Origin: Bryobacterales bacterium
Lineage (GTDB): Bacteria > Acidobacteriota > Terriglobia > Bryobacterales > UBA6623
Assembly (NCBI GenBank): GCA_965238045.1
Contig: CBDEGU010000010.1
Location: 237,627 to 301,626 of the forward strand
Reading direction: 5' to 3'
DNA: 64,000 bases
Of the stretch, positions 2,370-26,418 are shown in pieces. Position 1 is the first letter of the stretch; each line of letters opens with the position of its first letter. The position numbers and the translations under genes are program-made. The notes under the pieces are model-generated. The model saw only the letters and a program-made list of their open reading frames with translations. It ran no database searches and was not told the DNA's origin.

Positions 2370-3689
2370 ATGACAAATACTCCAAGGCCGCAATGGTCGC
2401 GGCGTGGCTTCTTTCAGAGCTTCGTGGGTGGACCGGCCGCGGCCGCCTCCATGCTGCATGCAAGGGCGGCATTTGCGCAGTCGATCGGAGAAGTCCGCGA
2501 GGGCACCCAGGCCTGGCGGGAAGACTGGCGCCACGACGGCGGTTTCTGGGAGAAGGTGCGAGAGAAGTTTCTTCTCGAGAAGGGCTTCACGTACATGAAC
2601 AACGGCACGCTGGGCCCGACACCCAGACCGGTCTACGAAGCGATGGTGGAATACTGGCGGCTGATGGCTGTCAATCCCCATGAAAACAGCGCAATCTTCC
2701 AGAACGGGGTGGAGCAGACCCGCGCCAAGGCGGCCGACTTCCTCGGCGCCACGGTGGATGAGATCTCCATCACCCGCAACACGACCGAGGGAAACACGAT
2801 CCTGTGCCAGGGCCTGGACCTGAAACAAGGGGACGAAATTCTCATCACCGCCTACGAACATTCGAGCAACCGCGAGACTTGGAGGCGGCAGAGCAAACGC
2901 TACGGACTCGTCGTCAAACAGGTGAAGTTTCCTATACCGCCGGATGACCCTGCTGTGATTCTCAATGCTTTCGAGGATGCGATCACTCCGCGGACACGGG
3001 TGATGCATTTCGCGAATCCGCTAGGGAGCACAGGTTGCTTTCTTCCGGTCAAAGAACTCGCGGTCCTGGCGCATAGCAAGAATATCCTCTGCTTTGTCGA
3101 TGGCGCCCATTGCACGGGCCATGTGATCTTCAGCCTGCAAGATTGGGGTGTTGACGGCTTCGCCTGCAACGCGCACAAATGGCTGACCGGACCGGCGGGG
3201 TCGGGGCTGCTGTTCGTCAAACAGGAGGTGCAAGAGAGAATTTGGCCGAACATCAGCATCCTTCCCTGGGACAGGCCGCCCAAGGGCGCCCGCAAGTACA
3301 ACCTCAGCGTAGGACGACGCCCTTGGCCCGTGGTGGCGGCACTGGAAGACACGCTGGACTTCCAAAATGCCGTCGGACGCGAGCGCATCGAGCAGAGAAC
3401 CCGCGGTTTAGGGACCTACCTGAGGCGCAAGGCGGCCGAAATCCCCGGGGTGCGGATTTACACGCCCACGGCCCCCGCCATGTCGGCTGGCATCACGAGC
3501 ATCGGAATCGAGAAGGTTTCTGGGCGCAGACTGAAAGAATACCTGCGACAAAGATACGACATCTATGTACCGGGAGGCAGCCGCAGTCCGGGTGGCCGTG
3601 TTCGCATCTCGACGCACTACTACAACACCTTCGAGCAGGTGGACCTAGTGCTCAAAGCGCTCAGCGAGTTGTCTTCAGGAGCGGCATAA
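2370..3689 (+). CDS. class V aminotransferase / cysteine-desulfurase-like PLP enzyme with Tat-type signal
   Basis: 439-aa ORF. N-terminus has SRRGFFQSF...AFAQS (twin-arginine motif plus AxA). The body is typical of aminotransferase class V (YMNNGTLGP, NAHKWLTGP with PLP lysine). Confidence 0.85.
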   Translation: MTNTPRPQWSRRGFFQSFVGGPAAAASMLHARAAFAQSIGEVREGTQAWREDWRHDGGFWEKVREKFLLEKGFTYMNNGTLGPTPRPVYEAMVEYWRLMAVNPHENSAIFQNGVEQTRAKAADFLGATVDEISITRNTTEGNTILCQGLDLKQGDEILITAYEHSSNRETWRRQSKRYGLVVKQVKFPIPPDDPAVILNAFEDAITPRTRVMHFANPLGSTGCFLPVKELAVLAHSKNILCFVDGAHCTGHVIFSLQDWGVDGFACNAHKWLTGPAGSGLLFVKQEVQERIWPNISILPWDRPPKGARKYNLSVGRRPWPVVAALEDTLDFQNAVGRERIEQRTRGLGTYLRRKAAEIPGVRIYTPTAPAMSAGITSIGIEKVSGRRLKEYLRQRYDIYVPGGSRSPGGRVRISTHYYNTFEQVDLVLKALSELSSGAA

Positions 3690-3821
3690 ACTTGGAGAGG
3701 GACGCCAGAGAGGCCGTCAACAGAAAAAGTCGCCGCGTCTTCTGATGGGCTCGAATAGTTCGCATGCGTTATCAAACGCGGATCGCGGCCCCATTCCGTT
3801 CCCCCCATTCAGCGCCTCCAT

Positions 3822-4601
3822 TCAGTGCCGTCGTTGTTTCCGTTCCGCGTGCTCCACAACGGCCTGAACCAAATGAGGCGGAATGAACGTGATGCCCATG
3901 CGGTCGCCGAGAACGATGTCGCCCGGCATGACCGTCACGCCGCCGATGCGAGTCGGAGTATTGAGTCCGGTCAGGATGGCGTTGCCCCGCACGCCAGGGT
4001 GATAGCCCCGGCTGAAAACAATCGTGTTCATGGGATAGACGCCATCGAGATCTCGAAATGATCCATCGACAATAAACCCGTTGCCGGTCGCCAAGAACAT
4101 GCTGAAGATCAAGTTGTCGCCGCCGAAGGTGCCTTCCTCGATTCTCCCCATCACGTCCACAACCGGCACGTCGCCGGGACCGAACATCTCCATGACACGC
4201 TGGGTCACCGGCGTGGGAATCTCTTCCTCGTTGCGCGCCGCTTCCACGTCGCCTAGAATCAATTTTTCCAAATCAGGCCGCGAGGGCATGAACTGCACGG
4301 TGAACGCCCGGCCGATCAGCTTCTGCTCGGGATGCACAATGGCCCAACCGTCCTCCCACTGATTGGGGTATCCCGCCCGGCGCAACAGCTCGGCCGCCGA
4401 TGTCGACGAGGCGGCCTCGAGACGTTTCAGCCAATAGCCGGGCACGTGCGGCCGTCCGTCGACCGAGCGGCTGTAGGGATTCAGATGGGTGTACTTGATG
4501 AGCTGTTCTCTCGAAAACCCGTCAAATTGCGCCGACAAAGGCGCGACGGCGAGAGCCGCGAGCATGAGAAGCAGAGGCGGTCTGTAGGACATGGCTGGCA
4601 T
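3822..4601 (-). CDS. RraA-family (RraA / HMG-CHA aldolase-like) protein with Sec-type signal peptide
   Basis: 259 aa. Signal LLLMLAALAVAPLSAQ. RraA-like core (GDVPVVD...GTFGGDNL...GNGFIVDGSFRD...V.PGDIVLGD..G). Paralog of 4633..5511. Confidence 0.8.
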   Translation of the reverse strand: MPAMSYRPPLLLMLAALAVAPLSAQFDGFSREQLIKYTHLNPYSRSVDGRPHVPGYWLKRLEAASSTSAAELLRRAGYPNQWEDGWAIVHPEQKLIGRAFTVQFMPSRPDLEKLILGDVEAARNEEEIPTPVTQRVMEMFGPGDVPVVDVMGRIEEGTFGGDNLIFSMFLATGNGFIVDGSFRDLDGVYPMNTIVFSRGYHPGVRGNAILTGLNTPTRIGGVTVMPGDIVLGDRMGITFIPPHLVQAVVEHAERKQRRH

Positions 4602-4632
4602 CGCCGGTCGGAGTTCGGAGGCCGGGACGGGC

Positions 4633-5511
4633 CTATTCGATTCCCAACTCCTTTTTCTTCTTCGCCAGCCATGCCTCGTACTCTGCCTTGAGTTTCGGAT
4701 CTTTCGGCCTCGGGTAAAGCTCGCTCGACTTGTACCTGCCGGTGGCGAACTTGCCCTTGGTCCAGATGTCGTGCAGCTCGGTAATCTTGGCGCTCTTGTA
4801 GACCGACTCCACCAACTCCGGCGGCACGAAGGTCAGACCTTCACGGTCGCCGATCACCAGATCTCCCGGCATCACGGTGGTATTGCCGACCCGAATCGGC
4901 ACGTTCACGCCGGTAAGCATCACATTACCCAGCGCCGAGACATGGAAACCGCGAACGTAGACCGGAATGTTCTGCGGATGGATGCCGTCGAGGTCGCGCA
5001 CTCCGCCGTCGATCACGAAACCATTGCCCGTCGCCGAGTGAATCGACGCCGCGAGGTTGTCTCCGGCGAACGTGCCCTGGTCGATTTTCCCAAACAGATC
5101 GACAATCAGAACATCGCCGGGCCGCAGCAGGTTGATCACCCGCTGGTTATGGCTCACCTTCGTCTCGCCGCGGTTGTTGTCGCCTTCGATGACATCGCTC
5201 AGGTCCGAACGCAGGGGCATGAACTGCGCCGTGAACACTCGTCCGATGAGCTTCTTTTCCGGATGAACAATCTGCCAGCCGCCGGACCATTGGTTGTGAT
5301 AGCCCGCGCCCCGCATCGGCCCCCAGACCATTTCCGACGAAGCCGCCCGCAGGCCATCAATGTATTTCTGAGGCACCTTCGGACGCCCGTCGTCGAAACG
5401 GCCAAACGGATTGTTCGCCGTGTACTTGATGAGCTGCTGCTTGCCGAAACCATCAAGCTGCGCCCAGGCTGGAGCGGCGAAAATCAGTAGCATCAGACCA
5501 AATCGTTTCAT
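4633..5511 (-). CDS. RraA-family protein with Sec-type signal peptide (tandem paralog)
   Basis: The track ORF runs 4633..5679, but the sensible start is the internal ATG at 5511 (MKRFGLMLLIFAAPAWAQ signal), which aligns with the N-terminus of the 3822..4601 paralog (QLDGFGKQQLIKY vs QFDGFSREQLIKY). Confidence 0.8.
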   Translation of the reverse strand: MKRFGLMLLIFAAPAWAQLDGFGKQQLIKYTANNPFGRFDDGRPKVPQKYIDGLRAASSEMVWGPMRGAGYHNQWSGGWQIVHPEKKLIGRVFTAQFMPLRSDLSDVIEGDNNRGETKVSHNQRVINLLRPGDVLIVDLFGKIDQGTFAGDNLAASIHSATGNGFVIDGGVRDLDGIHPQNIPVYVRGFHVSALGNVMLTGVNVPIRVGNTTVMPGDLVIGDREGLTFVPPELVESVYKSAKITELHDIWTKGKFATGRYKSSELYPRPKDPKLKAEYEAWLAKKKKELGIE

Positions 5512-5660
5512 GCCGAAGAATGTAGCACAGTGACAACAGCACGCGGGGGGGCGGCAGGCGGCGCGCGGGTCTTGGTCACAGTCCGGGAAGCGATCTGCTG
5601 AATCCGGTATAATGCCCTCGGGAAAAAGCCGCAAGAAAACCGAAAGAAAAAGAGGTCGGA

Positions 5661-6653
5661 ATGACAAGCAGCTGGACACGCCGCGAGATTCTCACCGCAA
5701 TCGCTTCCCCGATGGTTCTCGAGGCCCTGCCGCCGCGCGCGGTTGCGGGCAAGACCATGCGGGGAGCGTTCATCATCACCGCAACGCCTTATACCGAGGC
5801 GAAGAAAGTTGACTTCGAGGACCTGGCGGGCGAGGTGGATTTTCTCGATCGCTGCGGCGTGCAGGGCATGGTCTGGCCTCAGTTCGCCAGCGAGTACCCC
5901 TACCTCACCAAGGACGAGCGGTTCGAGGGCATGGAAGTGCTCGCCAAAGCGGCCAAGGGGAAGAAGCTCGCGCTCGTGCTCGGCGTCCAGGCCGCCAACA
6001 CCAGCGAGATGCTCGCGTTCGCGCGGCACGCCGAAAAAGTCGAACCCGACGCCGTCATCGCCATGCCTCCCAAAGAGGCCGCTTCGCTCGACGACTTCCG
6101 CGATTACTACCGCGCCCTGTGCAAGCTCGCCAAGCGGCCCGTATTCATCCAGACGACCGGAGGCGCCAAAGGCATCGAACCCACCGTGGAGTTCATTGTC
6201 GAACTGGCCAGGGAGTTTCCCAATTTCGGCTACATCAAGGAAGAGTACAAACCCAGCCTCCCCCGCATGCTCACGCTGGCCAAACACCGTCCCGGCCCCA
6301 TCAAGAGTATTTTTGGAGGAGCCGCCGGCCGTGCCTGGCCCTACGAGATGCGCTACGGACTCGACGGCACGATGCCCGGCGCCATGTACGCCGATGTCTA
6401 CGCCACCCTCTGGGAGCTGCACCTGAGGGGCGAGCGCGACCAGCTTCGCGAAGTCTTCAGCAAGCTCATGCTGATGATCAACCTTGACGCGCACATTCCC
6501 GGCGTCCGCAACTATGTCTTCAAGCGGCGGGGCATTTTCAAAACCAGCATCTCGCGAAAAGCCGACTATACCTGGTCCAGAGAGGCCGTCGAGGAGATCG
6601 AACACAACCTCGCCGGACTGGCTCCCTATCTGAAAATCAAGCTGCCCTCCTAA
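5661..6653 (+). CDS. dihydrodipicolinate synthase (DapA/NAL) family class I aldolase-like protein with Tat-like N-terminus
   Basis: 330 aa. N-terminus TRREILTAIASP. DHDPS-family layout with the candidate Schiff-base lysine in FGYIKEE. Confidence 0.8.
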   Translation: MTSSWTRREILTAIASPMVLEALPPRAVAGKTMRGAFIITATPYTEAKKVDFEDLAGEVDFLDRCGVQGMVWPQFASEYPYLTKDERFEGMEVLAKAAKGKKLALVLGVQAANTSEMLAFARHAEKVEPDAVIAMPPKEAASLDDFRDYYRALCKLAKRPVFIQTTGGAKGIEPTVEFIVELAREFPNFGYIKEEYKPSLPRMLTLAKHRPGPIKSIFGGAAGRAWPYEMRYGLDGTMPGAMYADVYATLWELHLRGERDQLREVFSKLMLMINLDAHIPGVRNYVFKRRGIFKTSISRKADYTWSREAVEEIEHNLAGLAPYLKIKLPS

Positions 6654-6709
6654 GCGGCGACGCGAAGCGTTCGATGCCCGTGAACGCCGGTGTCCCGGTT
6701 TCCTCCTTG

Positions 6710-7858
6710 CTACGGGGCGGGTGGGTGATTCCAGCCACAGGCTTTCATCATGATGTGGAAGATCTGGGTGTTCTCGATAAAGCCCTGGACCGCGTCCGAG
6801 CCCGGGCCTTCGGCCATCAGGGGCACCTGTTCGGCCGTGTGGTTTCCGCCGATCTCGATTGAGTCTAGGATTTCCTTTGTGCGGCCTTTGCCGCGGAGCA
6901 TGCGGAGATCGTAGGAGTGATCGGCGGTGACCAGCAGCAGCGTTGGTGTCGCCCTCAAGCGGTCCGCGGTTTCGCGGATGATCTGGTCCATGCGGATCAC
7001 CCCGTCCAGGGTCTTGGCGGGCTCGCGGAAATGATTGTTGGATTCCACCATCAAGAAGAAACCGTTGGGGTTACGGCTCAAGATGTCGATTGCCAGCTTG
7101 ACCGCTGGCAGCAGGTCGAAGTCCGATTGATGCGCTACGTTGAACAGACCGACTACCCGGGAGGCGCTGCTGGGAACCTCGGCCAATTGGGCGGGGTCGT
7201 CCAAATAGACATACCCGGCGTATTTCACCCGGGCGGGCACATCGAGACCGATTTCAGCGGCGCTCTTGAAGAGGCGCTCGCGGCCCGTGCCGATGAGGAC
7301 ATCCACGCCGTCGCCAAACCGGGGCGCAAGGAACTGTTCGAAGGTCCGGCCCCATTCGTCGCGTTCGTTGCTGTGGGCGTAGCAGGCGGCGGGCGTGGCA
7401 TCGGTTGCTCCGCTGTTGGTAACGATGCCAGTCGAGAGGCCTCGCTCTTCGGCGTATTCCAGGATCGTCTTGAGGGTCTGGCCATCCTTGGAGCCTCGCA
7501 CCGCATCGGAAGCCTGTGAGACGACGCCGTTGTGGGTCTTCTCGCCTGTAACGATGGCCGTCATGCCGGCGGCGGAATCGGAAACCCACCTCGAGGCCGA
7601 AGATGTATCGGACAGGGCGAGATGCGGCATCTGGTGCAGGTAGAGGCCCTGCGAGCCGCCGGTAGCGCGCACGCTAGCCGCATGCAGCGAAGCCAGCCCG
7701 GTACCGTCACCGAGGAACAGGACCACGTTTTTGGCGCGAGCGGTTGGTGGTGGCGAGCAGGCGGCCGATAGGGCGCCGGTGACAAGCAGAGCTAATAGTA
7801 AGTTGATGTGCGAAGGCTGGCTGGAAGGCCGATTGGGAGTGGAGATCGTTGGGAGCAT
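6710..7858 (-). CDS. alkaline phosphatase (PhoA family), probable lipoprotein
   Basis: 382 aa. VVLFLGDGTG and TDSAAGMTAIVTGEKT (active-site Ser motif). N-terminal LLVTGALSAAC lipobox-like sequence. Confidence 0.85.
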   Translation of the reverse strand: MLPTISTPNRPSSQPSHINLLLALLVTGALSAACSPPPTARAKNVVLFLGDGTGLASLHAASVRATGGSQGLYLHQMPHLALSDTSSASRWVSDSAAGMTAIVTGEKTHNGVVSQASDAVRGSKDGQTLKTILEYAEERGLSTGIVTNSGATDATPAACYAHSNERDEWGRTFEQFLAPRFGDGVDVLIGTGRERLFKSAAEIGLDVPARVKYAGYVYLDDPAQLAEVPSSASRVVGLFNVAHQSDFDLLPAVKLAIDILSRNPNGFFLMVESNNHFREPAKTLDGVIRMDQIIRETADRLRATPTLLLVTADHSYDLRMLRGKGRTKEILDSIEIGGNHTAEQVPLMAEGPGSDAVQGFIENTQIFHIMMKACGWNHPPAP

Positions 7859-8065
7859 ATGAGGCGGGCACCACGAGAAGCCTAAATTCTACCACGGAAG
7901 CGGGGTTGTTTGACGGGGCTGGATACGCCGTGCTTTTCCAGTCAGCGGTAACGAGTCCTGAGTTTCTTGGCTTCTCCTGAGGGGTCCACTCCACCCGTTG
8001 GCGGGTCCACAGGCGACGACGTTTCGCTGAAGTGAGGGTTCCGTTATTTCCCTGCTACGCCCGCG

Positions 8066-9598
8066 CTAGCTCATTCGCTTTGCTTGCCATCGCCCGGCGC
8101 CGTACTCGCCGAGGCCGACTTTGCCGGACATGAGGTCGCCGGATACCCGTCCGGTGAAGCGGTACCGCAAGGAAGTTCCTTCATAGCGAGCCGAACTGCG
8201 GATGTCGATTTGCGAGCCGCTCACCCGGCCGCTGACCGGTCCGCTGGCAATCCGGCCGATGTGCTCGCCGCTTACCTGGCTCTGCCGCATTGCGAGGAAG
8301 AACTTGTGGCGGGCGGAACCCACTGAGTATTCGATCCGCACGTCCCAGTGACCTGACACGTTGACCGCGGCCGGCGGATCTTCCGGCGGGGGTAGTTTAG
8401 GTCCCGGGGCGTTGCTGAAGATCTCGTAGAGTCTTTCGGCGACAAGGGTCTCATCACCGGCATAGAGCGCCGCCGCCCGGATGCCGAGGGAATGCCCCGC
8501 CCCTCCCGCATGGGCTCTGATGCGCGGCTTTCCGGTCAACAGCAGCTCGTTGACCTCTCCCGAGGTCAGCCCGATCCGCCGCGGGTCCCAATCGATGCTC
8601 ATGCGAACGTAGTTGCCTTCGATCTCGCCTTCGGTAATCCGGCCGGTGACGCCGCTAACTTGCGAGACGCGGTGGATGATGTGGCGGTACCAAGTGCGCC
8701 ACAGCTCGTCCTCTTGGGACCGGTCGGGCTTGCTGGCAAGAGCTTCCACGGCCGCAAGCAGCCCCATGATCTCTTCCTTGCTGACCTTCATGGCGCGAGC
8801 GAAGGTGTGGTGAGGAGCACTGTTGATGAATGCGGCAGCGATGAGGTCCTTTCGCCCCAGCAACAGCCCTGCGGTCTGAGGACCTCTGACGATCTTTCCG
8901 CCGCTGTAGGCCACAAGATCGACGCCGCGGCGCAGGAACGGATTCGGCCGATGCGGGGTGCCGTCGGCTGCGTCCATCAGCACCGGAACCCCGCGTCCGT
9001 GGGCTGCCGCGACGTACTGCTCAAGAGAGAACGGGTTGCCCTTTTCGCCCATGTGGATCAGCCCGGCAGCCATGGCCGTCTTGGGACCGAAAGCCTTTTG
9101 AAGGTCCTCCGCCGTGGTCACTTCAATGATGTGCACCCCCACGGAGCGAATCGCCTGGTCGTAAACGATGCGAGACCAACTCGGGATCACCACCTCATTC
9201 TTGAGGCCTCGCGTGTCGGGCACCTGCTGGATCTTCTCGGGGTCGCCGCCGGCGACGCAGGCGAGAGTGGCGCAGGTAACAGCGCCCGCCGCCCCGGAGC
9301 TGACATGAGCCGCTTCGGCATCGAGCAACTCAGCGATCCGCGGGCCCACTGCCGACATGAGTTCGTCGAGGTTGACGTGATAGTACGCAGCCTGGCGGAT
9401 GGCTTCGATGACTTCCGGCCGTTGCGCCGACCCGCCGTGAATTGTGGTTATCGCCGTGCAGTTGATGTAGGGCTTCGCGCCGAATCTCGTATAGACTTCG
9501 GGCCCGCCACCGCGCAGCGGCAAACCCGTCCGTGGATCGGCAGGCGGATTGGAGGCCGCCGCAAATCCCAAAAGCTCACGGCGCGCGCTTCTCCTCAT
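8066..9598 (-). CDS. SelA-like (L-seryl-tRNA(Sec) selenium transferase / DgaE-type) PLP enzyme with Tat-like signal and extra C-terminal domain
   Basis: 510 aa. N-terminus ARRELLGFAAAS. YSGGKIVRGPQTAGLLLGRKDLI matches the SelA-family PLP-lysine region. The last roughly 110 aa (VSGHWDVRIEY...G.VSG repeats) is an additional domain. Confidence 0.75.
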   Translation of the reverse strand: MRRSARRELLGFAAASNPPADPRTGLPLRGGGPEVYTRFGAKPYINCTAITTIHGGSAQRPEVIEAIRQAAYYHVNLDELMSAVGPRIAELLDAEAAHVSSGAAGAVTCATLACVAGGDPEKIQQVPDTRGLKNEVVIPSWSRIVYDQAIRSVGVHIIEVTTAEDLQKAFGPKTAMAAGLIHMGEKGNPFSLEQYVAAAHGRGVPVLMDAADGTPHRPNPFLRRGVDLVAYSGGKIVRGPQTAGLLLGRKDLIAAAFINSAPHHTFARAMKVSKEEIMGLLAAVEALASKPDRSQEDELWRTWYRHIIHRVSQVSGVTGRITEGEIEGNYVRMSIDWDPRRIGLTSGEVNELLLTGKPRIRAHAGGAGHSLGIRAAALYAGDETLVAERLYEIFSNAPGPKLPPPEDPPAAVNVSGHWDVRIEYSVGSARHKFFLAMRQSQVSGEHIGRIASGPVSGRVSGSQIDIRSSARYEGTSLRYRFTGRVSGDLMSGKVGLGEYGAGRWQAKRMS

Positions 9599-9695
9599 CG
9601 CACATAGGGTATCAGATTCTCGCGGACGGCACGGGGTATTTGGGCGGCACGGGGTATTTCGAGCAGCACGAAGTTCCAGATTCTTTCAGGCCGCT

Positions 9696-10727
9696 TTAGC
9701 CGGCGGTCGCAAACCCATGCTGAAGGCGGTGATGGGGACCGTCGAAATGCTTGCTCGACTTGAATAACTCATGCCGGCCGTCGCCCGCGTCCGCGGCCGC
9801 CATCTGGACCAACTCTCCTTTGTCGCTATCGGACATTGCCTGGAAGTTGCGGGCGATTCGCAGATCCTGCTCCAAATCTTCCATCGACCGGATGCCGACA
9901 CAAAGACTGGAGATGGGCAGGCTCAGCGCATAACGGATGCACTGCTCGGCCGTGATGCTCGTTTCGCTCGGGATGCGGCCCTTGGGGTAGTCGGGCGAGC
10001 CGCCCAGGCTCTTCATCCCGATCACGCCGACATTCTTGTTGAGGCAGACCGGCACGACTTCCTTCTGGAAACTACGGTAGTGCGCGTCCATCACATTGAT
10101 GGGCATCTGCGCCGTGTCCCAGTCATAGGGCTTGGCCAGCATCTTGAGGTGGATCAGCGGATCCTTGTGGCCGGTGAAACCGATAAAGCGCACCTTGCCT
10201 TCCTTCTTAGCTTCGAGAGCCGCCCGGAGCCCGCCCTTTTCGAACACCCAGTCGGGATCGTTGTCGTAGACCATCTCGTGGAACTGCCACAAGTCGACGT
10301 AGTCGGTTTTCAAGCGGCGCAGGCTGTCTTCGAGACAGCGCTTGCTGCCCTGGTAGTCCCGCTCGCAGTTCTTCGTCATCAGGAAGACTTTCTTGCGGTG
10401 GCCGCCCGATGCGAGCGCCGCGCCCATCACCCGTTCGGAGCCGCCGTTGTGATAGTCCCAGGCGTTATCGAAGAAGTTGATGCCCTCATCGATCGCCCGG
10501 TGCATGATGCGGTGGGCTTCGTTCTTGTCTTCGACAGCGCCGATGTGCCAGCCGCCGAGACAGATGATCGAGACCTGCTCGTTGGTGCGGCCGAGTTTCG
10601 CGGTTGGTATGCCGTCACCGCTCGATCGCTGCGCCAGAGCGCGTTGTGCCAGCGACGCTGCTACCGCACTGCCGAAGAGACCACGAAAGAAATCACGCCT
10701 GGAGCCGTTGCCGGTCATGTTCGTCAC
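9696..10727 (-). CDS. aldo/keto reductase with Tat signal
   Basis: 343 aa. SRRDFFRGLFGSAVAASLAQRALAQ. AKR motifs (INFFDNAWDYHNGGSERVMG, LWQFHE). Confidence 0.85.
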   Translation of the reverse strand: MTNMTGNGSRRDFFRGLFGSAVAASLAQRALAQRSSGDGIPTAKLGRTNEQVSIICLGGWHIGAVEDKNEAHRIMHRAIDEGINFFDNAWDYHNGGSERVMGAALASGGHRKKVFLMTKNCERDYQGSKRCLEDSLRRLKTDYVDLWQFHEMVYDNDPDWVFEKGGLRAALEAKKEGKVRFIGFTGHKDPLIHLKMLAKPYDWDTAQMPINVMDAHYRSFQKEVVPVCLNKNVGVIGMKSLGGSPDYPKGRIPSETSITAEQCIRYALSLPISSLCVGIRSMEDLEQDLRIARNFQAMSDSDKGELVQMAAADAGDGRHELFKSSKHFDGPHHRLQHGFATAG

Positions 10728-10815
10728 CTCGCGGGAAATGTTGATCCCATTTTACATGAGCGCGGCTGGTTCGGCCACTGGAGTCCCGCGATCCTCCACG
10801 GCGAGTAAGGAGCGC

Positions 10816-12096
10816 TCACGAACCACCCAAGTATTGCGCGGCTTGTGGCAGAGTATCGAGCAAGATTGCCCGGATATCCACGCGATCAGCAGCGGACAAG
10901 TGGCTGAAGCGGTCGCTTTCGTCACGACCCGTCAAGATCTCATCGAGCCGCTTGTAGACGTAGTCCTTGACTTGCTCTGGAAGTTCACGAAAGGCCTCAG
11001 AGTAAATGAGAAAACTGCACGGGTAGCGAAACAGCCTTGTCGTCAGATCCAGATCCCGCAAAGACCGGCCCTTGGCATCGCCGAGACCCTGCCTCTGGAA
11101 ATCCTCGGCGAACGAGGTTGGACCCTCGACAGGGCCCGGGAGCGGCGTCTCACCGGAAAGCAGCAGATGGCGCACGAGACGCTCGCTGGGCCCTTCGATG
11201 CGCCGGCGAACGGAAGCCAGTAAGTCTTCGGAAGGATCACCCATGATGCGGATCATGTCGTCGCGATAGGCGAGGGCCTTGCGCGCCTCAATGTTGGCGA
11301 ACGCGATGCGATTGTGCATCTGGGTCTGATGAGCCAAAACAATGTGCGCGACGATGTCGCTGTGCGGAGTCAGATAAGCCTCGACACTAAAGCGGCCGGC
11401 CAGATCAGTCACAGTCGAGCCAGCCCCCTTCTCGAACTCCGGCGCCTGACTGGGACTAGCGAGCGTCGCGTTTCCGCGGTGGGTGCCCTTCACTCTGCCG
11501 GTGACATACCAACCACCGAAACGCTCGGAGATCTCGGTCGTGTGATCAACGTTCGTTGTCCCGAGCTGGAAATAGGGCATGCCGCCGGTACTGGGGTACA
11601 CCGAGCGTGTGAGATGACCAGGAATGCCGAGGGTCCGTCCTGTTTCGTGGCATTGCAGGCAAGCCCCGTTGTCGGGAACAAAGCGGGGCTTTTCGGTCGG
11701 TTCTTGCGGCAGGGTGTAAAAGACGGCGCCGCCGGCGGGGTCGGCGACGGAGATTTCCATCAAGCGGCTTCCACGAACCCAGCCGACATAGATGTCATCG
11801 TTGAAATAGATGGCGCGGGGGAAGGAGGGCGAGATCAGCCGGAATTGGGCGCTGGTCTTCGAAAAGACAAGGACCTGCGATGAAGTGGGGATTTCCAGGG
11901 CTTCGAGGAGCGAGGGCAGGTATCCCAACTGGGAGTCATACTCGAGGCGGGCCTCACCGCGATCGATGCGGTCTTGGAAACGCGCAATCGGATCGAGCGC
12001 GCCGGTCGGCCGTTGCTGGGCGGAAGCGGACCCGAGAGCCATGAAGGCCCACAGGAGTAAGGCCAGGAAGCGGGCCGAGGGGGGAAACATACTCAC
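10816..12096 (-). CDS. secreted protein with a single CxxCH heme-binding motif (hypothetical cytochrome c-like)
   Basis: 426 aa. Signal FLALLLWAFMALGSASAQ. CLQCH motif. No other recognisable domain. Confidence 0.6.
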   Translation of the reverse strand: MSMFPPSARFLALLLWAFMALGSASAQQRPTGALDPIARFQDRIDRGEARLEYDSQLGYLPSLLEALEIPTSSQVLVFSKTSAQFRLISPSFPRAIYFNDDIYVGWVRGSRLMEISVADPAGGAVFYTLPQEPTEKPRFVPDNGACLQCHETGRTLGIPGHLTRSVYPSTGGMPYFQLGTTNVDHTTEISERFGGWYVTGRVKGTHRGNATLASPSQAPEFEKGAGSTVTDLAGRFSVEAYLTPHSDIVAHIVLAHQTQMHNRIAFANIEARKALAYRDDMIRIMGDPSEDLLASVRRRIEGPSERLVRHLLLSGETPLPGPVEGPTSFAEDFQRQGLGDAKGRSLRDLDLTTRLFRYPCSFLIYSEAFRELPEQVKDYVYKRLDEILTGRDESDRFSHLSAADRVDIRAILLDTLPQAAQYLGGS

Positions 12097-12247
12097 GATA
12101 TCTGCTCCTGATCTGCTCTGCTGCTGAGCTGCTCCTGGAATTGATAGTAATGAGTAGCGGGCGAGTTTGGCCGGCTCATTCCAGATCGCTTCGGGGTAGC
12201 GGGATTTTCTTGTTCTGGTTGGACGATGCTCGTGCTCTGTGGCTCGT

Positions 12248-12328
12248 GAAACCGGAAACCGCGGAAATCGGCGGAAATCGGGACGGCCTCGATTCTTGCA
12301 AAGTGCTGGGGTTTCCCGGTTTCCGTTG
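12248..12328. repeat. REP-like palindromic element (copy A) with CGGAAA(C/T)CG units
   Basis: gaaaccggaaaccgcggaaatcggcggaaatcgggacggcctcga...ggggtttcccggtttccg. Shares cggaaa(t/c)cgggac(g/a)gcctcga and tcccggtttccg with 13693..13758. Confidence 0.45.
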
Positions 12329-12453
12329 AATCCGAGCCGTGGATTGGCGTATACTCACCGTTGCCGGGATAGCCGAAATGGAAATCCCAGGATGGAAATC
12401 TTGGTTGCATAACACGGAATCGTGCTCATCCGCGATCTGATTCCCGCGCAACA

Positions 12454-13692
12454 ATGACGCTACCTTCCCCCACCCGCCGCGCCTTCCTCGCCGCCCTGGC
12501 CTGCGCGCCCCTCGCCTGCTCCGAATCGCTCCCGCCCATCCGCCCAATCACCCGCGGACCCAACTTCCACTGGTTCGGCTACTACGACAAGCTGCAATTC
12601 GACCCCTCAAGCCGCTACGCCCTGGGCGTCGAAGGGACCTTCGAACACCGCCTGCCTACCGCTGATGACAAAATCGCCATCGGCATGGTCGACACCGAAG
12701 ACGGCGACCGCTGGATCGCGCTCGGCGAATCCCGCGCCTGGAGCTGGCACCAGACCTCGATGCTTCAATGGCTGCCCAGTTCGGACCACGAAATCATCTG
12801 GAACGACCGCCTGGGCGATCACTTCGGCGCGCATATTGTCGATGTCAGAACCCGCAAGAAGCGCACGATTGATTCGCCCATCTACTGCCTCCACCCCGAC
12901 GGACAATCCGCGCTCGCCAACGACTTCCGCCGCCTCTACGACGTCCGCCCCGAAACCGGCTACGCCGGCGTCCCCGACCCCAATGGTGATATCGCCGCGC
13001 CCGACAACGCCGGCATTTGGCGCGTCGAACTCGCCAGCGGTAAGCGCGAGTTGCTGCTCTCCTTCGCCGACGCCGCCAAGGTCGATGACGGAGTCTCCGA
13101 CTGGACCGGCGCCAAGCACTGGTTCAACCACTTGCTCTACGCCCCCGGCGGTAAGCGTTTCGTCTTTCTTCACCGCTGGCGCAAACCCGGCCAGGGCCGC
13201 GGATTCACCACGCGCATGTTTACCGCCAACGCCGACGGCACAAAGCTGCGTCTGCTCGATGCCAGCGGGCGCACCTCGCACTTCATCTGGCGCGATGCCA
13301 GCCACCTGCTTGTCTGGACGCACCGCGAAAGCCATGGCCGCCGCTTCTACCTGTTTGAAGACGCCGACGGAGGCACGGTCGAGCCCGTCGCCCCCGATAT
13401 CCTCACCCGCAACGGCCACTGCTCCTACTTGCCCGGCAACCGCTGGATTCTGAGCGACACCGGCCCCGACGACGATCGCCTGCAGCACCCCCTCCTGTTC
13501 GACACCAGAACCAACCGTCTCGTCCCGCTCGGGCACTTCCACTCGCCGCCCGAATACACCCGCGTCTGGCGCTGCGACACGACCCCCCGCTTCAGTCCCG
13601 ACGGCAAGAAAGTGGTCTTCGATTCGCCCCACGGCGGCAACGGCCGGCAGATGTACCTCGTGGACGTCAGCGCGATCACCGGCGCCGTGTGA
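12454..13692 (+). CDS. beta-propeller protein (TolB/DPP-IV N-terminal-like, oligogalacturonide-lyase-like) with Tat-like/lipoprotein N-terminus
   Basis: 412 aa. TRRAFLAALACAPLAC. C-terminal RFSPDGKKVVFDS blade. Function uncertain. Confidence 0.65.
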   Translation: MTLPSPTRRAFLAALACAPLACSESLPPIRPITRGPNFHWFGYYDKLQFDPSSRYALGVEGTFEHRLPTADDKIAIGMVDTEDGDRWIALGESRAWSWHQTSMLQWLPSSDHEIIWNDRLGDHFGAHIVDVRTRKKRTIDSPIYCLHPDGQSALANDFRRLYDVRPETGYAGVPDPNGDIAAPDNAGIWRVELASGKRELLLSFADAAKVDDGVSDWTGAKHWFNHLLYAPGGKRFVFLHRWRKPGQGRGFTTRMFTANADGTKLRLLDASGRTSHFIWRDASHLLVWTHRESHGRRFYLFEDADGGTVEPVAPDILTRNGHCSYLPGNRWILSDTGPDDDRLQHPLLFDTRTNRLVPLGHFHSPPEYTRVWRCDTTPRFSPDGKKVVFDSPHGGNGRQMYLVDVSAITGAV

Positions 13693-13758
13693 GCGACCGG
13701 AAACCGGGACAGCCTCGACATGTACCTATCATGGATGTCCCGGTTTCCGGTTAGTCGC
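13693..13758. repeat. REP-like long hairpin (copy B) at the core/island junction
   Basis: gcgaccggaaaccgggac (13693..13710) pairs with gtcccggtttccggttagtcgc (13737..13758): a 14-bp perfect core stem with a 26-nt loop. It lies between the convergent stops of 12454..13692 and 13758..14258. Confidence 0.55.
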
Positions 13759-14258
13759 TAGACCGACTTCCAGTCCGTCTTGAAGTCCAACTCGCGGACG
13801 AATCCAAACGTGTCAAGGCACCTCAGTCCAAGGTCAGCGCAGACATTCGGTATGTGGCGGTTTGCACGCTCTCTCTTGGGTTTCGACCTCTCTGTCGTTA
13901 CCACGCACCGGTCCAATTGCATTGTCAGGGCATACGCGATCAGGAACGGGTCGCGGCCGATTTTTTCGACCTCGTCGTCCGTGAGATCAGATGCGTATCC
14001 TTGGTCGATAACGCGTGAGACAAGCGATACATCGGCCTCTTCATCCAGCAGAAGAGCCTCCCCGACTTCTTCCTGCTTCGCCCACTTCCCGAGGTCATCG
14101 GACCCCGTTTTGATTTCTTCGTATATCTCGACCGGGATCTTGACCAGATCTTCGAGGCCGTTGTGCTCAAGCCATTCCCAGAACTCAGGGACTCGCGCGA
14201 TGGGGTAGTAGTCCCGGTTCGCGTCGATCAATACGTTGGCGTCTAGCAGATAGAGCAA
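13758..14258 (-). CDS. DUF4411-type PIN-like nuclease domain protein
   Basis: 166 aa. MLYLLDANVLIDA... N-terminus typical of PIN-like/DUF4411 proteins. Lies 9 nt downstream of the XRE-ImmA/IrrE gene. Confidence 0.7.
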   Translation of the reverse strand: MLYLLDANVLIDANRDYYPIARVPEFWEWLEHNGLEDLVKIPVEIYEEIKTGSDDLGKWAKQEEVGEALLLDEEADVSLVSRVIDQGYASDLTDDEVEKIGRDPFLIAYALTMQLDRCVVTTERSKPKRERANRHIPNVCADLGLRCLDTFGFVRELDFKTDWKSV

Positions 14259-14267
14259 AGGATTTTC

Positions 14268-15479
14268 CTACGCCGTCATCCTAGTTGTTCCGCTCCTGCC
14301 TTGCTGGAGGAGCACTTCCACCTGCTTAGGCTTAACGCCAAGCACTTTTCCTGCCTTGGTTGTTGTGATGGCGCCGGCGCTCACCATTCGCCCAACCAAA
14401 TCAAGTAGAGCCGTTCCGACCCGATGTGCTCTCAGCACGTAGAAGCTTGGCCCCCCTTCCTGCTCACGGGCTCGCTCGCGCTGTTTGAGACGCTGTTGAC
14501 TCCACAAGTCACGAAAAGAGGTGTTGAGACGCAACCACCTGTCCTGGCCAATGGTTCCAGCTCGATAGAGCCTGTACGCAACCATCGTGCTGCTCAGGTT
14601 GCGCTCCTTCGCGAAGTCGCTGATTCGCGCCTGGATCGCTTCCAAGCCGCTCGTATCGTTGAGCGAGAGTTGTTTAAGCTCGTTCGCCGACAAGAGGAAC
14701 TCGCCAGCGACATCGTTACAGAATCGCTCGATTGTGATGCCAGCGCGCTCCCCGCTGACCCCTGTTTGCCCGAGCCAAAGGTGGGCGAGTTCATGGAGGA
14801 GGGTAAAGGACCACGCAGCTCGGGCATCCTGGTCGTTGATGACAACAAATGGAGCTACGTCGTCCGCCAACGCCAGACCCCGGAAAGTCTCAACTCCGAT
14901 TGCGGAGTGGTAGCTTCCGAGGTTTCCGATGAGCAGGACGAACACACCCGCCTTCTCTGTACGATTACGGAGTAGCGCGAAGGCTTCCGCCGGAGACGGC
15001 TGCGCATATAGATCACCTCTGGTTGTCCCTAGGGTATTGCGAATCGACGAGACGACGGCCCGGACACCATCGGACATCGTCATGGACCCAACGAATGTGA
15101 GCAGCAAAGCCTCATCCTCGTCTTCCAATACCGCGCGGACCATGCTTTGGCGCGCGCGGACATCCCGGATCAAGGCGTCCACGAGCGCGTCGTCGGCTGC
15201 TGTGTGGTCGGCGGGCAGTGTGCGAAAGTCCTGTCCGCGGTCGCCGCGCCGGGGCTTGTTGGACATATAAAACGTTACAAGGGGGCGACGGTACTGCTTT
15301 GCCATGCGCAAAAGCATGGGCCGCGTCGGCGCATCCTCGCCTGCCTCTAGGGCGGCCAAGCGGCTGACGGCGGACGAGCCCCGGGCCGGCCGCAATTGAA
15401 CCTTCTTAACAGCCTGCTCTGGCGTGAAGCCTGCTGTCTCACGAGCCCAACGAAGTATGTCTGGGTTGACGCTTGGCAT
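14268..15479 (-). CDS. XRE-type HTH fused to ImmA/IrrE family zinc metallopeptidase
   Basis: 403 aa. N-terminal HTH (LRWARETAGFTPEQAVKKV). HEXXH motif HELAHLWLG. Confidence 0.85.
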   Translation of the reverse strand: MPSVNPDILRWARETAGFTPEQAVKKVQLRPARGSSAVSRLAALEAGEDAPTRPMLLRMAKQYRRPLVTFYMSNKPRRGDRGQDFRTLPADHTAADDALVDALIRDVRARQSMVRAVLEDEDEALLLTFVGSMTMSDGVRAVVSSIRNTLGTTRGDLYAQPSPAEAFALLRNRTEKAGVFVLLIGNLGSYHSAIGVETFRGLALADDVAPFVVINDQDARAAWSFTLLHELAHLWLGQTGVSGERAGITIERFCNDVAGEFLLSANELKQLSLNDTSGLEAIQARISDFAKERNLSSTMVAYRLYRAGTIGQDRWLRLNTSFRDLWSQQRLKQRERAREQEGGPSFYVLRAHRVGTALLDLVGRMVSAGAITTTKAGKVLGVKPKQVEVLLQQGRSGTTRMTA

Positions 15480-15692
15480 TTGCTCTCGGACGGCGGCGCC
15501 CGTCAGAGCGCCTCGCCAACCGGATTATCGCTCATCTTGAGGACAACGTGCGTCTGCTCTCCTGCGCTAACTCGTGTTGGGGTGACCCACATTGAACCGG
15601 TTGTGGTCGCCAACGCACCCGCGATTCAGAGTCAAGGAAAACCCCGGGGGAACCCGGAGTGCGAGTTGCGAGCCGTGGCGACGGCGGCGATC

Positions 15693-15721
15693 TTTACAAA
15701 CTACATGGGGTTTGATAGCAT
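15693..15721 (+). promoter_or_regulatory. sigma70-like promoter TTTACA-17-TAGCAT with ACAAAC-N8-GTTTG operator-like inverted repeat
   Basis: tttaca 15693..15698, tagcat 15716..15721. Followed by AGGAGA (15731..15736) and ATG at 15744. 23/29 identical to 17213..17241. Confidence 0.45.
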
Positions 15722-15743
15722 TCAGTGCGTAGGAGACTTACCT

Positions 15744-15938
15744 ATGCGCTGCCCTCATTGTGAGTCCGAGCTGACAGAGGCACAAGTGAAGAGACTCTGG
15801 AGCGACCTGACACGCTCTCGAATACGCCACCCCAGTGGCGGTCCGAAGAACCCGGTCTGGCGCAAGCACAGCGACAAAGCGGGCTCCCGCTGCCGCTGTC
15901 AGACGTGCAACGACCGCCGGGCCACTCGAACTGACTAG
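15744..15938 (+). CDS. small zinc-ribbon protein (hypothetical)
   Basis: 64 aa MRCPHCESELTE...CRCQTCNDRR (two CxxC pairs). Strong SD AGGAGA 7 nt upstream. Only the 3' third of track ORF 15396..15938 is plausible. The stop TAG overlaps the TA target of the IS630 element. Confidence 0.45.
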   Translation: MRCPHCESELTEAQVKRLWSDLTRSRIRHPSGGPKNPVWRKHSDKAGSRCRCQTCNDRRATRTD

Positions 15939-17168
15939 TATATCGTTTCATTAAACTGTACTCATCTCAGACGCGCTCTCCAGCGGCTCGAACTTCCTCC
16001 AGCGGTGAACGACGGGGGCGGCGTTGATCTCCGCGATCCCCTGCAGGATTCGTTCTCGAAGTTCCTCCCAGGACTCCACCCGGATTCGCTTCAAAAAAGT
16101 GCGCGCCATCTTCCCGAACAGCGTCTCGACAATGTTCAGCCAGGATCCGTGGGTCGGCGTATGCACGTATTTGAAGCGGTTCGGACGCGTCGCCAAATAG
16201 TCCTTCGTCTCCTTGGAAACGTGGGAGGAATGATTATCCAAGATCAATCGGATCGTGCAGTGGGCCGGGTAGGATTGGTCCAGATCCTTGAGCAGTAAGA
16301 TGAATTCCCGGCTGCGGTGGCGCCGCTCCACCCGCGCTGTCACCCGACCGTCGTGCAAGTCCAGCGCCGCCAGAATCGAGCAAGTTCCCAGACGTTTGTA
16401 TTCGTAATCTCGAGCCACGCAGGGATGCCGCCCCGCAGTCGGCGGCAGGTCCGGAGCGGTGTTGGCGATCGCTTGCACGCCGGGCTTTTCGTCGACCGAA
16501 ACCGTAATCACGCCCGGCGATGGGCCGCCCTCGCCCGCGCTTTCATTCTGCAAGGCCACCTCGCGGTAGACCAGCAGCACCTGCCGCATCTTGGACTCAA
16601 AATCCGGGTCGCGGCGCTGCAAGTAGTACTTCACCTTCTCCGGGTGAAGAGGTTGCTCGGCCAGAATCCGATGGACGGTCGCCTTGGCCGCTTGGGCCAA
16701 GGCCGGATAGCCCGCTTCCACGGCATGCTGGCGCACGTGCCGGGCGAGCGCGCCGCGGGTCCAGAGCTCGGCGGCGTAACCGAGTTGCTTGGGTTTGCTA
16801 CAGGCCAAGTGCACCACCCAGGCCTTGGCCTCTTCGCTGATGCGGGGTTCCCGGGGACGATGATAGGCATCCTTGAGCGCCGCTTCCACCCCCATGGCCA
16901 GGGCTCGCTCGATCCATTTGCCAACGCTTTTGCGCGTCATCTTCACGGCCCGCATAATCTCGGCGATCGTCTCGCCGCAATGATAGCGCCACAGAATCTC
17001 GGCTCTCTGCACCTCCCGAGCCGGAGCCTTACGCGAACGACGCAGCCGCTGCAGATGTTGCGACTCTTCGGGCGTGAGAAGCAGTTGGGGACGCTTCGAT
17101 TTTCCTGCCATGCATCCAGCCTAGCAGGAAACATCCTCGTATCGATATGTTTTAATGAAACGCTATAC
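15938..17168 (-). mobile_element. IS630-family insertion sequence (1,231 bp) with TA target duplication
   Basis: IRs gtatatcgtttcattaaa (15938..15955) and the reverse complement of 17151..17168 (gtatagcgtttcattaaa) match 17/18. Flanked by TA at 15936-37 and 17169-70. Confidence 0.85.
15951..17111 (-). CDS. IS630-family DDE transposase
   Basis: 386 aa. N-terminal HTH, then DEKPGVQA...LILDNHSSH...WLNIVE typical of IS630/Tc1-like transposases. Confidence 0.9.
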   Translation of the reverse strand: MAGKSKRPQLLLTPEESQHLQRLRRSRKAPAREVQRAEILWRYHCGETIAEIMRAVKMTRKSVGKWIERALAMGVEAALKDAYHRPREPRISEEAKAWVVHLACSKPKQLGYAAELWTRGALARHVRQHAVEAGYPALAQAAKATVHRILAEQPLHPEKVKYYLQRRDPDFESKMRQVLLVYREVALQNESAGEGGPSPGVITVSVDEKPGVQAIANTAPDLPPTAGRHPCVARDYEYKRLGTCSILAALDLHDGRVTARVERRHRSREFILLLKDLDQSYPAHCTIRLILDNHSSHVSKETKDYLATRPNRFKYVHTPTHGSWLNIVETLFGKMARTFLKRIRVESWEELRERILQGIAEINAAPVVHRWRKFEPLESASEMSTV

Positions 17169-17212
17169 TAGGTACTAGTAGGTTCATTTTTCGCCAAACG
17201 GAGATTTGCACC

Positions 17213-17241
17213 TTTACAAACTCTATAGAGTTTGTTAGAAT
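17213..17241 (+). promoter_or_regulatory. sigma70-like promoter TTTACA-17-TAGAAT overlapping a perfect 20-bp palindrome
   Basis: tttaca 17213..17218, tagaat 17236..17241, palindrome acaaactctatagagtttgt 17216..17235. In an AT-rich stretch upstream of 17313. Confidence 0.5.
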
Positions 17242-17312
17242 GGTGTGTATGAGAATATCTTCCCGAAAAACATTCTCATCCCACAAAACAATTAAGGAGC
17301 ATCCCTTTTCCA

Positions 17313-17915: not shown

Positions 17916-18016
17916 CCAACAATACCGCGTGCCTGACCAGAGGGCCGCGGCTGGTTGATGCTTGACCGAGAGCGCCAAGGCCGACGAGATCTGCTGCTTT
18001 GAAATCGTCTATGATC

Positions 18017-19666: not shown

Positions 19667-19674
19667 GATGAGCG

Positions 19675-21686: not shown

Positions 21687-21699
21687 AGGGGTACGTCCA

Positions 21700-26415: not shown

Positions 26416-26418
26416 GGT

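Follow-up and report, generated by a model that had tools for sequence, protein, structure and literature searches.

The export of cofactor-loaded enzymes via Tat (twin-arginine translocation) belongs to textbook knowledge, and the known cargo consists mainly of respiratory redox proteins together with a few oddities, i.e. glucose-fructose oxidoreductase (GFOR) and the pyridoxal phosphate (PLP) enzymes PvdN and PtaA. Do whole families of 'central-metabolism-type' enzymes also carry conserved export signals? The DNA considered here is a stretch of 64,000 nucleotides (the window) from the Bryobacterales assembly GCA_965238045.1, contig CBDEGU010000010.1, positions 237,627 to 301,626. It contains a cluster of 13 genes in which eight proteins of normally cytoplasmic families have signals: two class-V-fold PLP enzymes (termed here the first and second aminotransferase), a DgaE-like PLP enzyme, an aldo-keto reductase (AKR), a DHDPS-like aldolase, an enolase-type enzyme and two RraA-like proteins. 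Nine of the genes form the left part of the cluster (2.3-13.7 kb), and four more are found to the right of a mobile element (29413-34824). The cluster is probably a spot where part of the very large exported-enzyme repertoire of the Bryobacterales is concentrated, with no single conserved operon or pathway. Behind this view stand the conserved signals, the assigned families, the retained catalytic residues and the missing synteny.

The closest described systems for the PLP enzymes are PvdN and PtaA of fluorescent pseudomonads, fold-type-I enzymes with twin-arginine signals that are exported by Tat in the folded state with PLP (PMC6206403). The first aminotransferase has a class-V fold likeness to PvdN, which is its best curated match (NCBIfam NF051467), but the sequences are distant (139 bits, cutoff 650), a pyoverdine or non-ribosomal peptide synthetase (NRPS) context is missing from the window, and Bryobacterales have many PLP paralogues alongside exported aldolases and dehydratases. 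For nicotinamide enzymes, Zymomonas GFOR is mentioned as a Tat-exported protein with NADP non-dissociably bound (PMC8121099). A bound nicotinamide has likewise been proposed for the Bacteroides protein BT2158, a GFO/IDH/MocA-type enzyme with a Tat signal that acts in a periplasmic 3-keto-glycoside route (PMC8121099). Like these two, the window AKR is a nicotinamide-dependent enzyme with a Tat signal, and the abundance of Tat-GFO and Tat-xylose-isomerase-like genes in Bryobacterales loci adds to the likeness. However, the AKR is a TIM barrel and not a Rossmann-fold GFO, and tight cofactor binding would be an analogy here.

In the D-glucosaminate pathway of Salmonella, the ammonia-lyase DgaE is followed by DgaF, a 2-keto-3-deoxy-6-phosphogluconate-type aldolase. 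The window DgaE-like protein has a homologous PLP domain (7lc0, E 2.5e-30; TIGR01437 match) with the PLP lysine conserved, and aldolase-family genes are near, which resembles the lyase-then-aldolase logic. Salmonella DgaE, in contrast, is cytoplasmic, is fed by the phosphotransferase system (PTS) and uses a 6-phosphate substrate, whereas the window family has a Tat signal and adds a C-terminal avidin-like barrel; the aldolases are of the DHDPS or RraA type and not DgaF/Eda, and neither PTS nor Eda/DgaF genes are present in the window or in 79 Bryobacterales loci described below. Non-phosphorylative sugar-acid routes (Weimberg/Dahms, oxidative L-fucose/L-rhamnose) consist of a dehydrogenase, an Amidohydro_2 lactonase, an enolase-superfamily dehydratase and a class I or II pyruvate aldolase, and are ATP-free. 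The window holds the enzyme families of such routes, ordered as in the steps of those routes. The routes, however, are cytoplasmic and encoded by conserved operons with transporters and regulators, whereas the window proteins are mostly signal-bearing and their gene order is not conserved.

Tat motifs were noted in the DUF1501 (Tat)/PSCyt-PSD modules of Planctomycetes and Verrucomicrobia (Kamneva et al. 2012, PMC3542564). These are also expanded Tat- or Sec-targeted sets of unknown function, and they flank DgaE-like orthologues in three loci (L005, L012, L013), but the protein families differ and no such module is found in the window. The genome paper on Candidatus Solibacter usitatus describes an expansion of enolase-superfamily and DHDPS/NAL paralogues, and never mentions twin-arginine, Tat or signal peptide (PMC3174227). 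Literature searches gave no account of DgaE-like, AKR, DHDPS-like, enolase-type or RraA-like enzymes that are exported, or of a large Acidobacteria Tat secretome, and the phrase 'periplasmic aldo-keto reductase' was not found in full text. Public records name such proteins simply 'aldo/keto reductase' or 'aminotransferase class V-fold PLP-dependent enzyme'.

Export signals and enzyme families

The initial annotation quoted seven twin-arginine (RR) N-termini, and all seven are present in the open reading frames (ORFs) and fit x-R-R-x-[FIL]-[FLM]. Five look canonical, with RR-x-F/[FLM] and an Ala/Gly-rich uncharged h-region, and an A-x-A site is visible in four of them. These are the first aminotransferase (...WSRRGFFQSF...AFAQ, Tat-type, AFA-Q), the AKR (...GSRRDFFRGL...ALAQ, a canonical Tat signal SRRDFFRGLFGSAVAASLAQRALA-Q), the propeller protein (...PTRRAFLAAL..., i.e. 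TRRAFLAALACAPLAC), the second aminotransferase (Tat-type MNRRQFLTATAVAASGAKAAA-D, from a corrected start MNRRQFLTAT at 31758) and the enolase-type enzyme (MLYSRRHFMGAA; RR segment SRRHFMGAAAGTFAGA, followed by a Ser/Pro-rich linker). The other two are the DHDPS-like protein (...WTRREILTAI..., TRREIL), with a Glu in its h-region, and the DgaE-like protein (MRRSARRELLGF...), whose h-region is short, about eight residues (LLGFAAAS); paralogues of both have canonical h-regions. Hydrophobic N-termini of the Sec type, also previously proposed, are found on both RraA-like proteins, the CxxCH protein, the sulfatase and the phosphatase, that of the phosphatase being lipoprotein-like. The first RraA-like protein has the signal ...LLLMLAALAVAPLSA-Q, and the second has MKRFGLMLLIFAAPAWA-Q with a corrected start MKRFGLM at 5511; a longer ORF reaching 5679 would overlap the divergent DHDPS gene. 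Start-codon reassignment thus left the RR N-termini in place, and the two corrections (second RraA-like protein, second aminotransferase) each expose a signal. In the signal-bearing cluster proteins, Pfam domains begin 30-80 residues past the N-terminus. Judged by eye, 7/13 cluster proteins have Tat-type N-termini, and a Tat heuristic accepts 6/7, failing the DHDPS-like protein for its h-region Glu, with 1.3-2.8% of internal control positions positive. A Sec heuristic also flags membrane proteins and was therefore kept out of quantitative use.

Are the signals conserved? An exact look-up of the window DgaE-like protein gave zero matches, and homologues were used instead. The closest relatives of the DgaE-like, AKR and first aminotransferase proteins belong to metagenome-assembled genomes (MAGs) of Bryobacterales, Bryobacteraceae or Solibacteraceae. 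Textbook Tat signals, e.g. SRRDVFRAGTAASVASLLAALPLRSSAA or NRRQMFLAGAIAGGA...ARAA, are present in nearly all of the 120 listed DgaE-like relatives (53-86% identity), with R6/R7 invariant in an alignment of 78 sequences. For the AKR, 118 of 120 relatives (69-95% identity) have SRRxFF...ALAQ, with R10, R11 and F13 unchanged throughout 50 sequences. The RR motif of the first aminotransferase recurs in 107 of 120 homologues, R11/R12 being invariant in 41 sequences. The n-regions beside the invariant RR vary, and Ala/Gly-rich h-regions and AxA sites come after. A few DgaE-like database entries (P0005, P0010-13) begin at MRGGGP without a signal, yet the DNA upstream of such 'short' entries still encodes the RR segment (L013); AKR and aminotransferase homologues devoid of RR are mostly truncated or mis-started.

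The remaining families were followed in Bryobacterales genomes, in 79 loci that surround DgaE-like genes (1.42 Mb; loci L005-L083). RR signals are carried by 8/9 DHDPS paralogues and 9/13 MR_MLE (enolase-superfamily) paralogues in these loci, and also by locus homologues of the second aminotransferase, propeller, AKR and Amidohydro_2 proteins and of several sulfatases. Examples are a propeller homologue in L062 (54% identity, SRREFALAAL), a second aminotransferase homologue in L059 (54% identity, NRRGFL), which adjoins a DgaE-like gene, and an Amidohydro_2 paralogue in L078 with RR and lipobox. As for the RraA-like proteins, Sec signals are found in all four distinct Bryobacterales homologues of the fetched loci and in 33 of 50 full-length 50%-cluster representatives of the subfamily (1.84-billion-protein library); about a dozen representatives begin straight at the mature domain. 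With RR invariant and signals recurring in paralogues and homologues, a start-codon artefact and chance can be set aside: conservation of the RR segment is seen in the proteins themselves, and the DNA upstream of the 'short' entries encodes it too. Going by these alignments, the export signals are under selection, as was expected for the RR motif if the first proposal was right.

The family assignments made from the sequence alone are borne out by Pfam and NCBIfam, the CxxCH and propeller proteins having no significant family. The former has zero matches in Pfam, NCBIfam or PDB, and the latter gave nothing beyond weak PD40/TolB matches in profile and structure searches. Zero cluster proteins reach NCBIfam equivalog cutoffs. 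The PLP lysines are kept in all three PLP enzymes (K270 in the first aminotransferase, K241 in the second, K235 in the DgaE-like protein), K235 being invariant among the 78 aligned sequences. The DgaE-like protein scores 155.5 bits against TIGR01437 (cutoff 385.3) and 154.7 against NF047797 (cutoff 600); its AlphaFold2 model has a pLDDT of 88.6, and it aligns to PDB 8t7j and 7lc0 (DgaE) at residues 18-397 only. What follows is a C-terminal domain of about 105 residues (~405-510, window 8069-8386), conserved in all relatives and missing from the solved DgaE structures. The AlphaFold model of this domain alone is an eight-stranded up-and-down beta-barrel (pLDDT 93), and its nearest Foldseek matches are streptavidin/avidin-like and other calycin barrels (TM 0.66-0.69, E ~0.01), a resemblance of fold only.

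The AKR (PF00248, 121.8 bits, cutoff 24) keeps the catalytic tetrad D87/Y92/K119/H150 in PDB alignments, and all four residues are invariant in 50 homologues. So is its His-rich tail, GDGRHELFKS..FDGPHHR.QHGF (C-terminal ~45 residues, window 9696-9850), which might serve as a lid, bind metal or bind a partner. In the DHDPS-like protein (PF00701, 43.7 bits, cutoff 22.1), K193 aligns with the Schiff-base catalytic Lys of 3dz1 and 2vc6, and another residue stands for the Tyr of the Y-N motif, the same as in 3dz1; the protein is far below the cutoff of every equivalog model (DapA, NanA, KdgD and others). The RraA-like pair (PF03737, 76 and 87 bits, cutoff 24.5) is below the cutoff of every equivalog or subfamily model, the best being PRK08245 (139 vs 208), and the closest structure to the second copy is 5x15, followed by the HMG/CHA aldolase 3noj. 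The enolase-type enzyme scores 206.9 bits against the NCBIfam galactonate dehydratase model (cutoff 311), and the usual motif of the AVDFHGR type reads AVEARCG here, with Glu as the first ligand and the His absent, unlike the canonical D-x-H/E/E active-site pattern. Taken at the level of sequence, the cluster enzymes are new subfamilies and not orthologues of PvdN, DgaE, DapA/NanA, LigK or galactonate dehydratase; with PLP lysines, K193 and AKR tetrad kept, they look catalytically intact.

Gene order, Tat-like N-termini in the lineage and competing readings

A tblastn search of 15 cluster and flank proteins against 83-86 loci, together with the neighbourhoods of DgaE-like, AKR and aminotransferase orthologues, found no conserved arrangement. 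DgaE-like orthologues (73-86% identity) have dissimilar neighbourhoods: those at 82-86% adjoin a Tat-MR_MLE gene alone (L005-L010) or genes of the RraA-like and GFO families (L001/L011), and those at ~74% adjoin Tat-DUF1501 modules (L012/L013). In L077 a DHDPS orthologue is found near a DgaE-like orthologue. The latter (L077:10004-11501, 81% identity) consists of two overlapping ORFs with the N-terminal part missing, and is either a pseudogene or a frameshift error of a long-read MAG assembly. AKR orthologues (69-85%) and aminotransferase orthologues (73-77%) are in unrelated contexts. A Tat-signal DUF1501 gene and a protein of ~960-980 aa adjoin the DgaE-like orthologues at L005:1662-6087, L012:2105-6699 and L013:11508-15887; these pairs look like the DUF1501/PSCyt-PSD module of Planctomycetes-Verrucomicrobia, here in Acidobacteriota, and PSCyt2/PSD1 matches fall on comparable proteins in L088.

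There is recurrence at another level. RraA-like, DHDPS-like, MR_MLE or class-V PLP genes are within ~3 kb of DgaE-like genes in roughly nine independent arrangements, versus four at 3-10 kb (the authors' own counts, with small numbers). The recurring association is thus loose and at the family level, i.e. DgaE-like with RraA, DHDPS and enolase families. It fits a shared '2-keto-3-deoxy-acid' logic, in which the acid formed by a lyase or dehydratase is cut by an aldolase, but it does not define a pathway.

How common are Tat-like N-termini in the lineage? A self-written simple gene caller and the Tat heuristic, in a loose and a strict version, were applied to the 1.42 Mb. The loose version is positive for 218/917 genes (24%). 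The strict version is positive for 91% of DgaE-like genes and 1.3% of internal control positions; among other genes it is positive for 11.1% at 0-3 kb, 9.6% at 3-6 kb and 13.2% at 6-10 kb. As there is no decay with distance out to 10 kb, the genome-wide rate would be close to a tenth of all genes. By this measure the Tat secretome of Bryobacterales would be exceptionally large, ~10% of genes by a home-made heuristic on DNA picked around one Tat family, which is a biased sample. The Tat share is <1% of genes in E. coli and ~2% in Streptomyces, and the Bryobacterales estimate is far higher. A Pfam scan of 42 non-redundant Tat-positive neighbours found xylose-isomerase-like TIM barrels (4; Pfam AP_endonuc_2), GFO/IDH/MocA (4) and MR_MLE (3), further DUF1501, sulfatases, DUF362, DegT aminotransferase, 2-Hacid_dh and Ala_racemase_N, and also M19 dipeptidase, amidase, GH109 and Amidohydro_2. 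On balance, the window cluster appears to be one dense patch of this lineage-wide repertoire.

Several points weigh against that interpretation. In scans of 45-residue N-termini, none of the seven RR proteins reaches the threshold of TIGR01409 or PF10518, which are short models of low sensitivity; three have sub-threshold matches (the propeller protein, TIGR01409 15.2 bits, cutoff 16.7; the second aminotransferase, TIGR01409 13.9, cutoff 16.7, and PF10518 16.5, cutoff 22.7; the enolase-type enzyme, 14.4, cutoff 22.7) and four have zero match. Such sub-threshold scores probably explain the export-free names in public records. The DgaE-like and DHDPS-like signals are atypical in their h-regions. 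Outside the cluster only 2 of ~35 window genes are heuristic-positive; both resemble membrane anchors, and they are the only matches in the right-hand 29 kb. The ~10% estimate carries the sampling bias mentioned, and neither a product transporter nor an AKR redox partner emerged from the analysis. The initial annotation had all members of the cluster signal-bearing; this holds for 12/13, the Amidohydro_2 protein being without a signal and its domain beginning at residue 12. Four orthologous MR_MLE copies without a signal adjoin Tat-DHDPS genes (L028/29/45/46). Compartments are therefore mixed, and some steps would be cytoplasmic.

Do the 13 genes instead encode one periplasmic catabolic pathway, as first proposed? 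The steps would be desulfation/dephosphorylation, dehydration or PLP deamination, pyruvate-aldol cleavage, and reduction/transamination of sulfated or phosphorylated amino-sugar acids, the choice of these specific substrates being pure conjecture. The set of families matches the non-phosphorylative sugar-acid routes and the DgaE-to-aldolase logic of D-glucosaminate catabolism, the family-level recurrence around DgaE-like paralogues points the same way, and four genes form a same-strand string (CxxCH-AKR-DgaE-phosphatase, CxxCH gene first) with gaps of 88, 97 and 207 nt. Yet among the loci compared this string is seen in this genome only; orthologues at 69-86% identity have other neighbours and none repeats the window arrangement. 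The CxxCH protein, phosphatase and sulfatase are not recurring partners, the Amidohydro_2 protein is signal-less, and the cluster lacks a regulator, a TonB receptor and a transporter. The two halves join only after removal of a 15-kb island whose ends no repeat defines, and with ~10% Tat-like genes in the lineage dense patches are expected. A single pathway is therefore unlikely; of the co-localisation that had been predicted, the loose association of families stands and a conserved arrangement is largely lacking. As for the AKR, the CxxCH protein was considered as its conserved redox partner and rejected, as it is missing beside AKR orthologues and matches neither a family nor a structure.

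The exported PLP and redox enzymes might also be tailoring or biosynthetic, and modify a secreted metabolite, siderophore, exopolysaccharide (EPS) or envelope component as PvdN and PtaA do for pyoverdine. Among curated models the first aminotransferase matches PvdN best, no characterised PLP enzymes exported by Tat other than PvdN and PtaA were found in the literature (PMC6206403), and the modelled avidin/calycin-like barrel of the DgaE-like family would be of a small-ligand type. On the other hand, the PvdN score is far from that of an orthologue, neither the window nor the surroundings of orthologues hold NRPS, siderophore or EPS genes, and the accompanying families (sulfatase, phosphatase, dehydratase, aldolases, GFO, xylose-isomerase-like) have a degradative character. 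With dozens of paralogues in each genome, substrate diversification fits better than a single product, and a tailoring role is improbable. That the RR N-termini are non-functional (chance motifs, mis-called starts, membrane anchors or decayed relics on cytoplasmic enzymes) is very hard to believe: the silent or sub-threshold Tat models, the very short DgaE-like h-region and the signal-less DgaE-like and RraA-like entries speak for it, but RR does not vary among the 41-78 homologues aligned for each family, although the n-regions do, and h-regions and AxA sites come after it, the DNA upstream of 'short' relatives encodes RR, the internal-position control gives 1.3% against 91% of DgaE-like genes, and the Pfam domains start well inside the proteins.

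Putative periplasmic chemistry

If the cluster is a patch of a lineage-wide exported repertoire, what might its enzymes do? From the signals and families we infer Tat or Sec export, a periplasmic location, the kind of substrates and a catabolic role. The six RR enzymes would fold and load PLP, NADP(H) or Mg2+ in the cytoplasm and then cross the inner membrane via Tat, for which PvdN/PtaA and GFOR are precedents. The RraA-like proteins would take the Sec route and acquire a divalent metal outside. Substrates arriving in the periplasm might be sugar acids, amino-sugar acids or amino-acid-like compounds. Outside the cytoplasm these could undergo hydrolysis by the sulfatase and phosphatase, PLP-dependent elimination or deamination, dehydration to 2-keto-3-deoxy acids, and Schiff-base or metal-dependent aldol cleavage, with possible redox-neutral chemistry by the AKR on bound nicotinamide. 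The products would be small molecules (pyruvate, aldehydes, ammonium) that could then be imported. The proposed reactions would require neither ATP nor a free cofactor pool; the chemistry put forward at the outset, dehydration or deamination to a 2-keto-3-deoxy acid followed by pyruvate-aldol cleavage, is ATP-independent and would hence be feasible in the periplasm. Each family would retain its signal while partners reshuffle between genomes, and the region would later have been split by the tRNA-Thr-associated mobile element.

The AKR step is the weakest link of this scheme, and would depend on a bound nicotinamide (GFOR-like dismutation or redox-neutral isomerisation) or on an unknown partner. 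The supply of NAD(P)H in the periplasm had been called a puzzle; by analogy, GFOR-like bound NADP would be a known type of solution.

A broader and more speculative suggestion, which we regard as rather doubtful, is that the periplasm constitutes a second metabolic compartment in Bryobacterales, and perhaps in other soil Acidobacteriota and the Planctomycetes-Verrucomicrobia-Chlamydiae group. About one-tenth of the genes, including whole PLP, NAD(P) and metal enzyme families, would be routed via Tat, and sugar acids, amino-sugar acids and peptides would be broken down independently of ATP to pyruvate-level products before uptake, with AKRs employing bound nicotinamide as a prosthetic group. 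Individual precedents for Tat-exported cofactor enzymes are known; it is the lineage-level scale that is of interest, and the specific pathway is weaker than proposed. The significance is in the conserved signals on entire 'central-metabolism-type' families in an abundant, poorly cultured soil lineage. If the enzymes are truly periplasmic, MAG-based metabolic reconstructions of Acidobacteriota place these reactions in the wrong compartment, and an ATP-free catabolic layer outside the cytoplasm would be part of how these bacteria use soil organic matter. For the turnover of nicotinamide and PLP enzymes in that setting, the Tat-AKR and the DgaE-like protein with its barrel would then be tractable cases.

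Gene map, mobile element and minor observations

Table 1. Genes of the exported-enzyme cluster and the intervening mobile element (window positions).
Feature	Position	Strand	Match or remark
Class-V-fold PLP enzyme (first aminotransferase), 439 aa	2370-3689	+	Pfam Aminotran_5 1.6e-51
RraA-like protein (class II aldolase/decarboxylase fold), first copy	3822-4601	-	Pfam RraA-like 4.3e-21
RraA-like protein, second copy	4633-5511	-	Pfam RraA-like 2.4e-24
DHDPS/NAL-family class I aldolase-like protein	5661-6653	+	Pfam DHDPS 1.9e-11
Alkaline phosphatase, family ordinarily exported	6710-7858	-	Pfam Alk_phosphatase 8.4e-48
DgaE/SelA-like PLP ammonia-lyase-type enzyme	8066-9598	-	NCBIfam TIGR01437 155 bits, cutoff 385
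Aldo-keto reductase (AKR)	9696-10727	-	Pfam Aldo_ket_red 3.7e-35
CxxCH protein, 426 aa, no family	10816-12096	-	single CLQCH (haem c) motif at C146
'Propeller' protein, 412 aa, no significant family	12454-13692	+	weak PD40/TolB repeat at C-terminus
Integrative mobile element, ~15 kb	13758-29073		splits exported-enzyme region; outside exported-enzyme set
Amidohydro_2 (lactonase/hydratase-type) protein	29413-30297	+	Pfam Amidohydro_2 3.8e-25, residues 12-283
Second class-V-fold PLP enzyme (second aminotransferase)	30520-31758	-	Pfam Aminotran_5 6.5e-40
Enolase-superfamily (galactonate-dehydratase-like) enzyme	32047-33339	+	Pfam MR_MLE_C 2.5e-54, MR_MLE_N 8.6e-18
Cys-type sulfatase, family ordinarily exported	33430-34824	+	Pfam Sulfatase 1e-57; CSPSR at C98

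The mobile element carries two DUF4411 or HTH + M78/IrrE-type pairs, three different transposases, AAA_25 and a DnaG-zinc-finger primase. Its tyrosine integrase (27797-28984) abuts a tRNA-Thr(CGU) gene (28998-29073, minus strand). No flanking att direct repeats of at least 18 nt that would fix its left end were found. Within the ORF 25588-26415, upstream of the primase and AAA_25 genes, three tandem copies of ~36 nt (25990-26094, 67-100% identical) could be iteron-like.

There are no tat genes within the window. Directly left of the cluster, a 263-aa protein of unknown family (1405-2196) has a Sec-type hydrophobic N-terminus and faint EF-hand-like matches only. Outside the cluster, a lactonase/beta-propeller-like lipoprotein candidate (50824-52107) has an RR pair and a lipobox at its N-terminus (MRRARFLSSVLVSTAIVLLMGC) and is possibly another Tat or Sec lipoprotein. 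It is followed by a run of paralogous Ser/Thr-kinase and TolB-like beta-propeller genes (52136-61815). One of these is full length (54603-57329), several copies are kinase-less or fragmentary, and a kinase fragment (60949-61815) is set apart from the run by a transposase-like gene (59634-60923).

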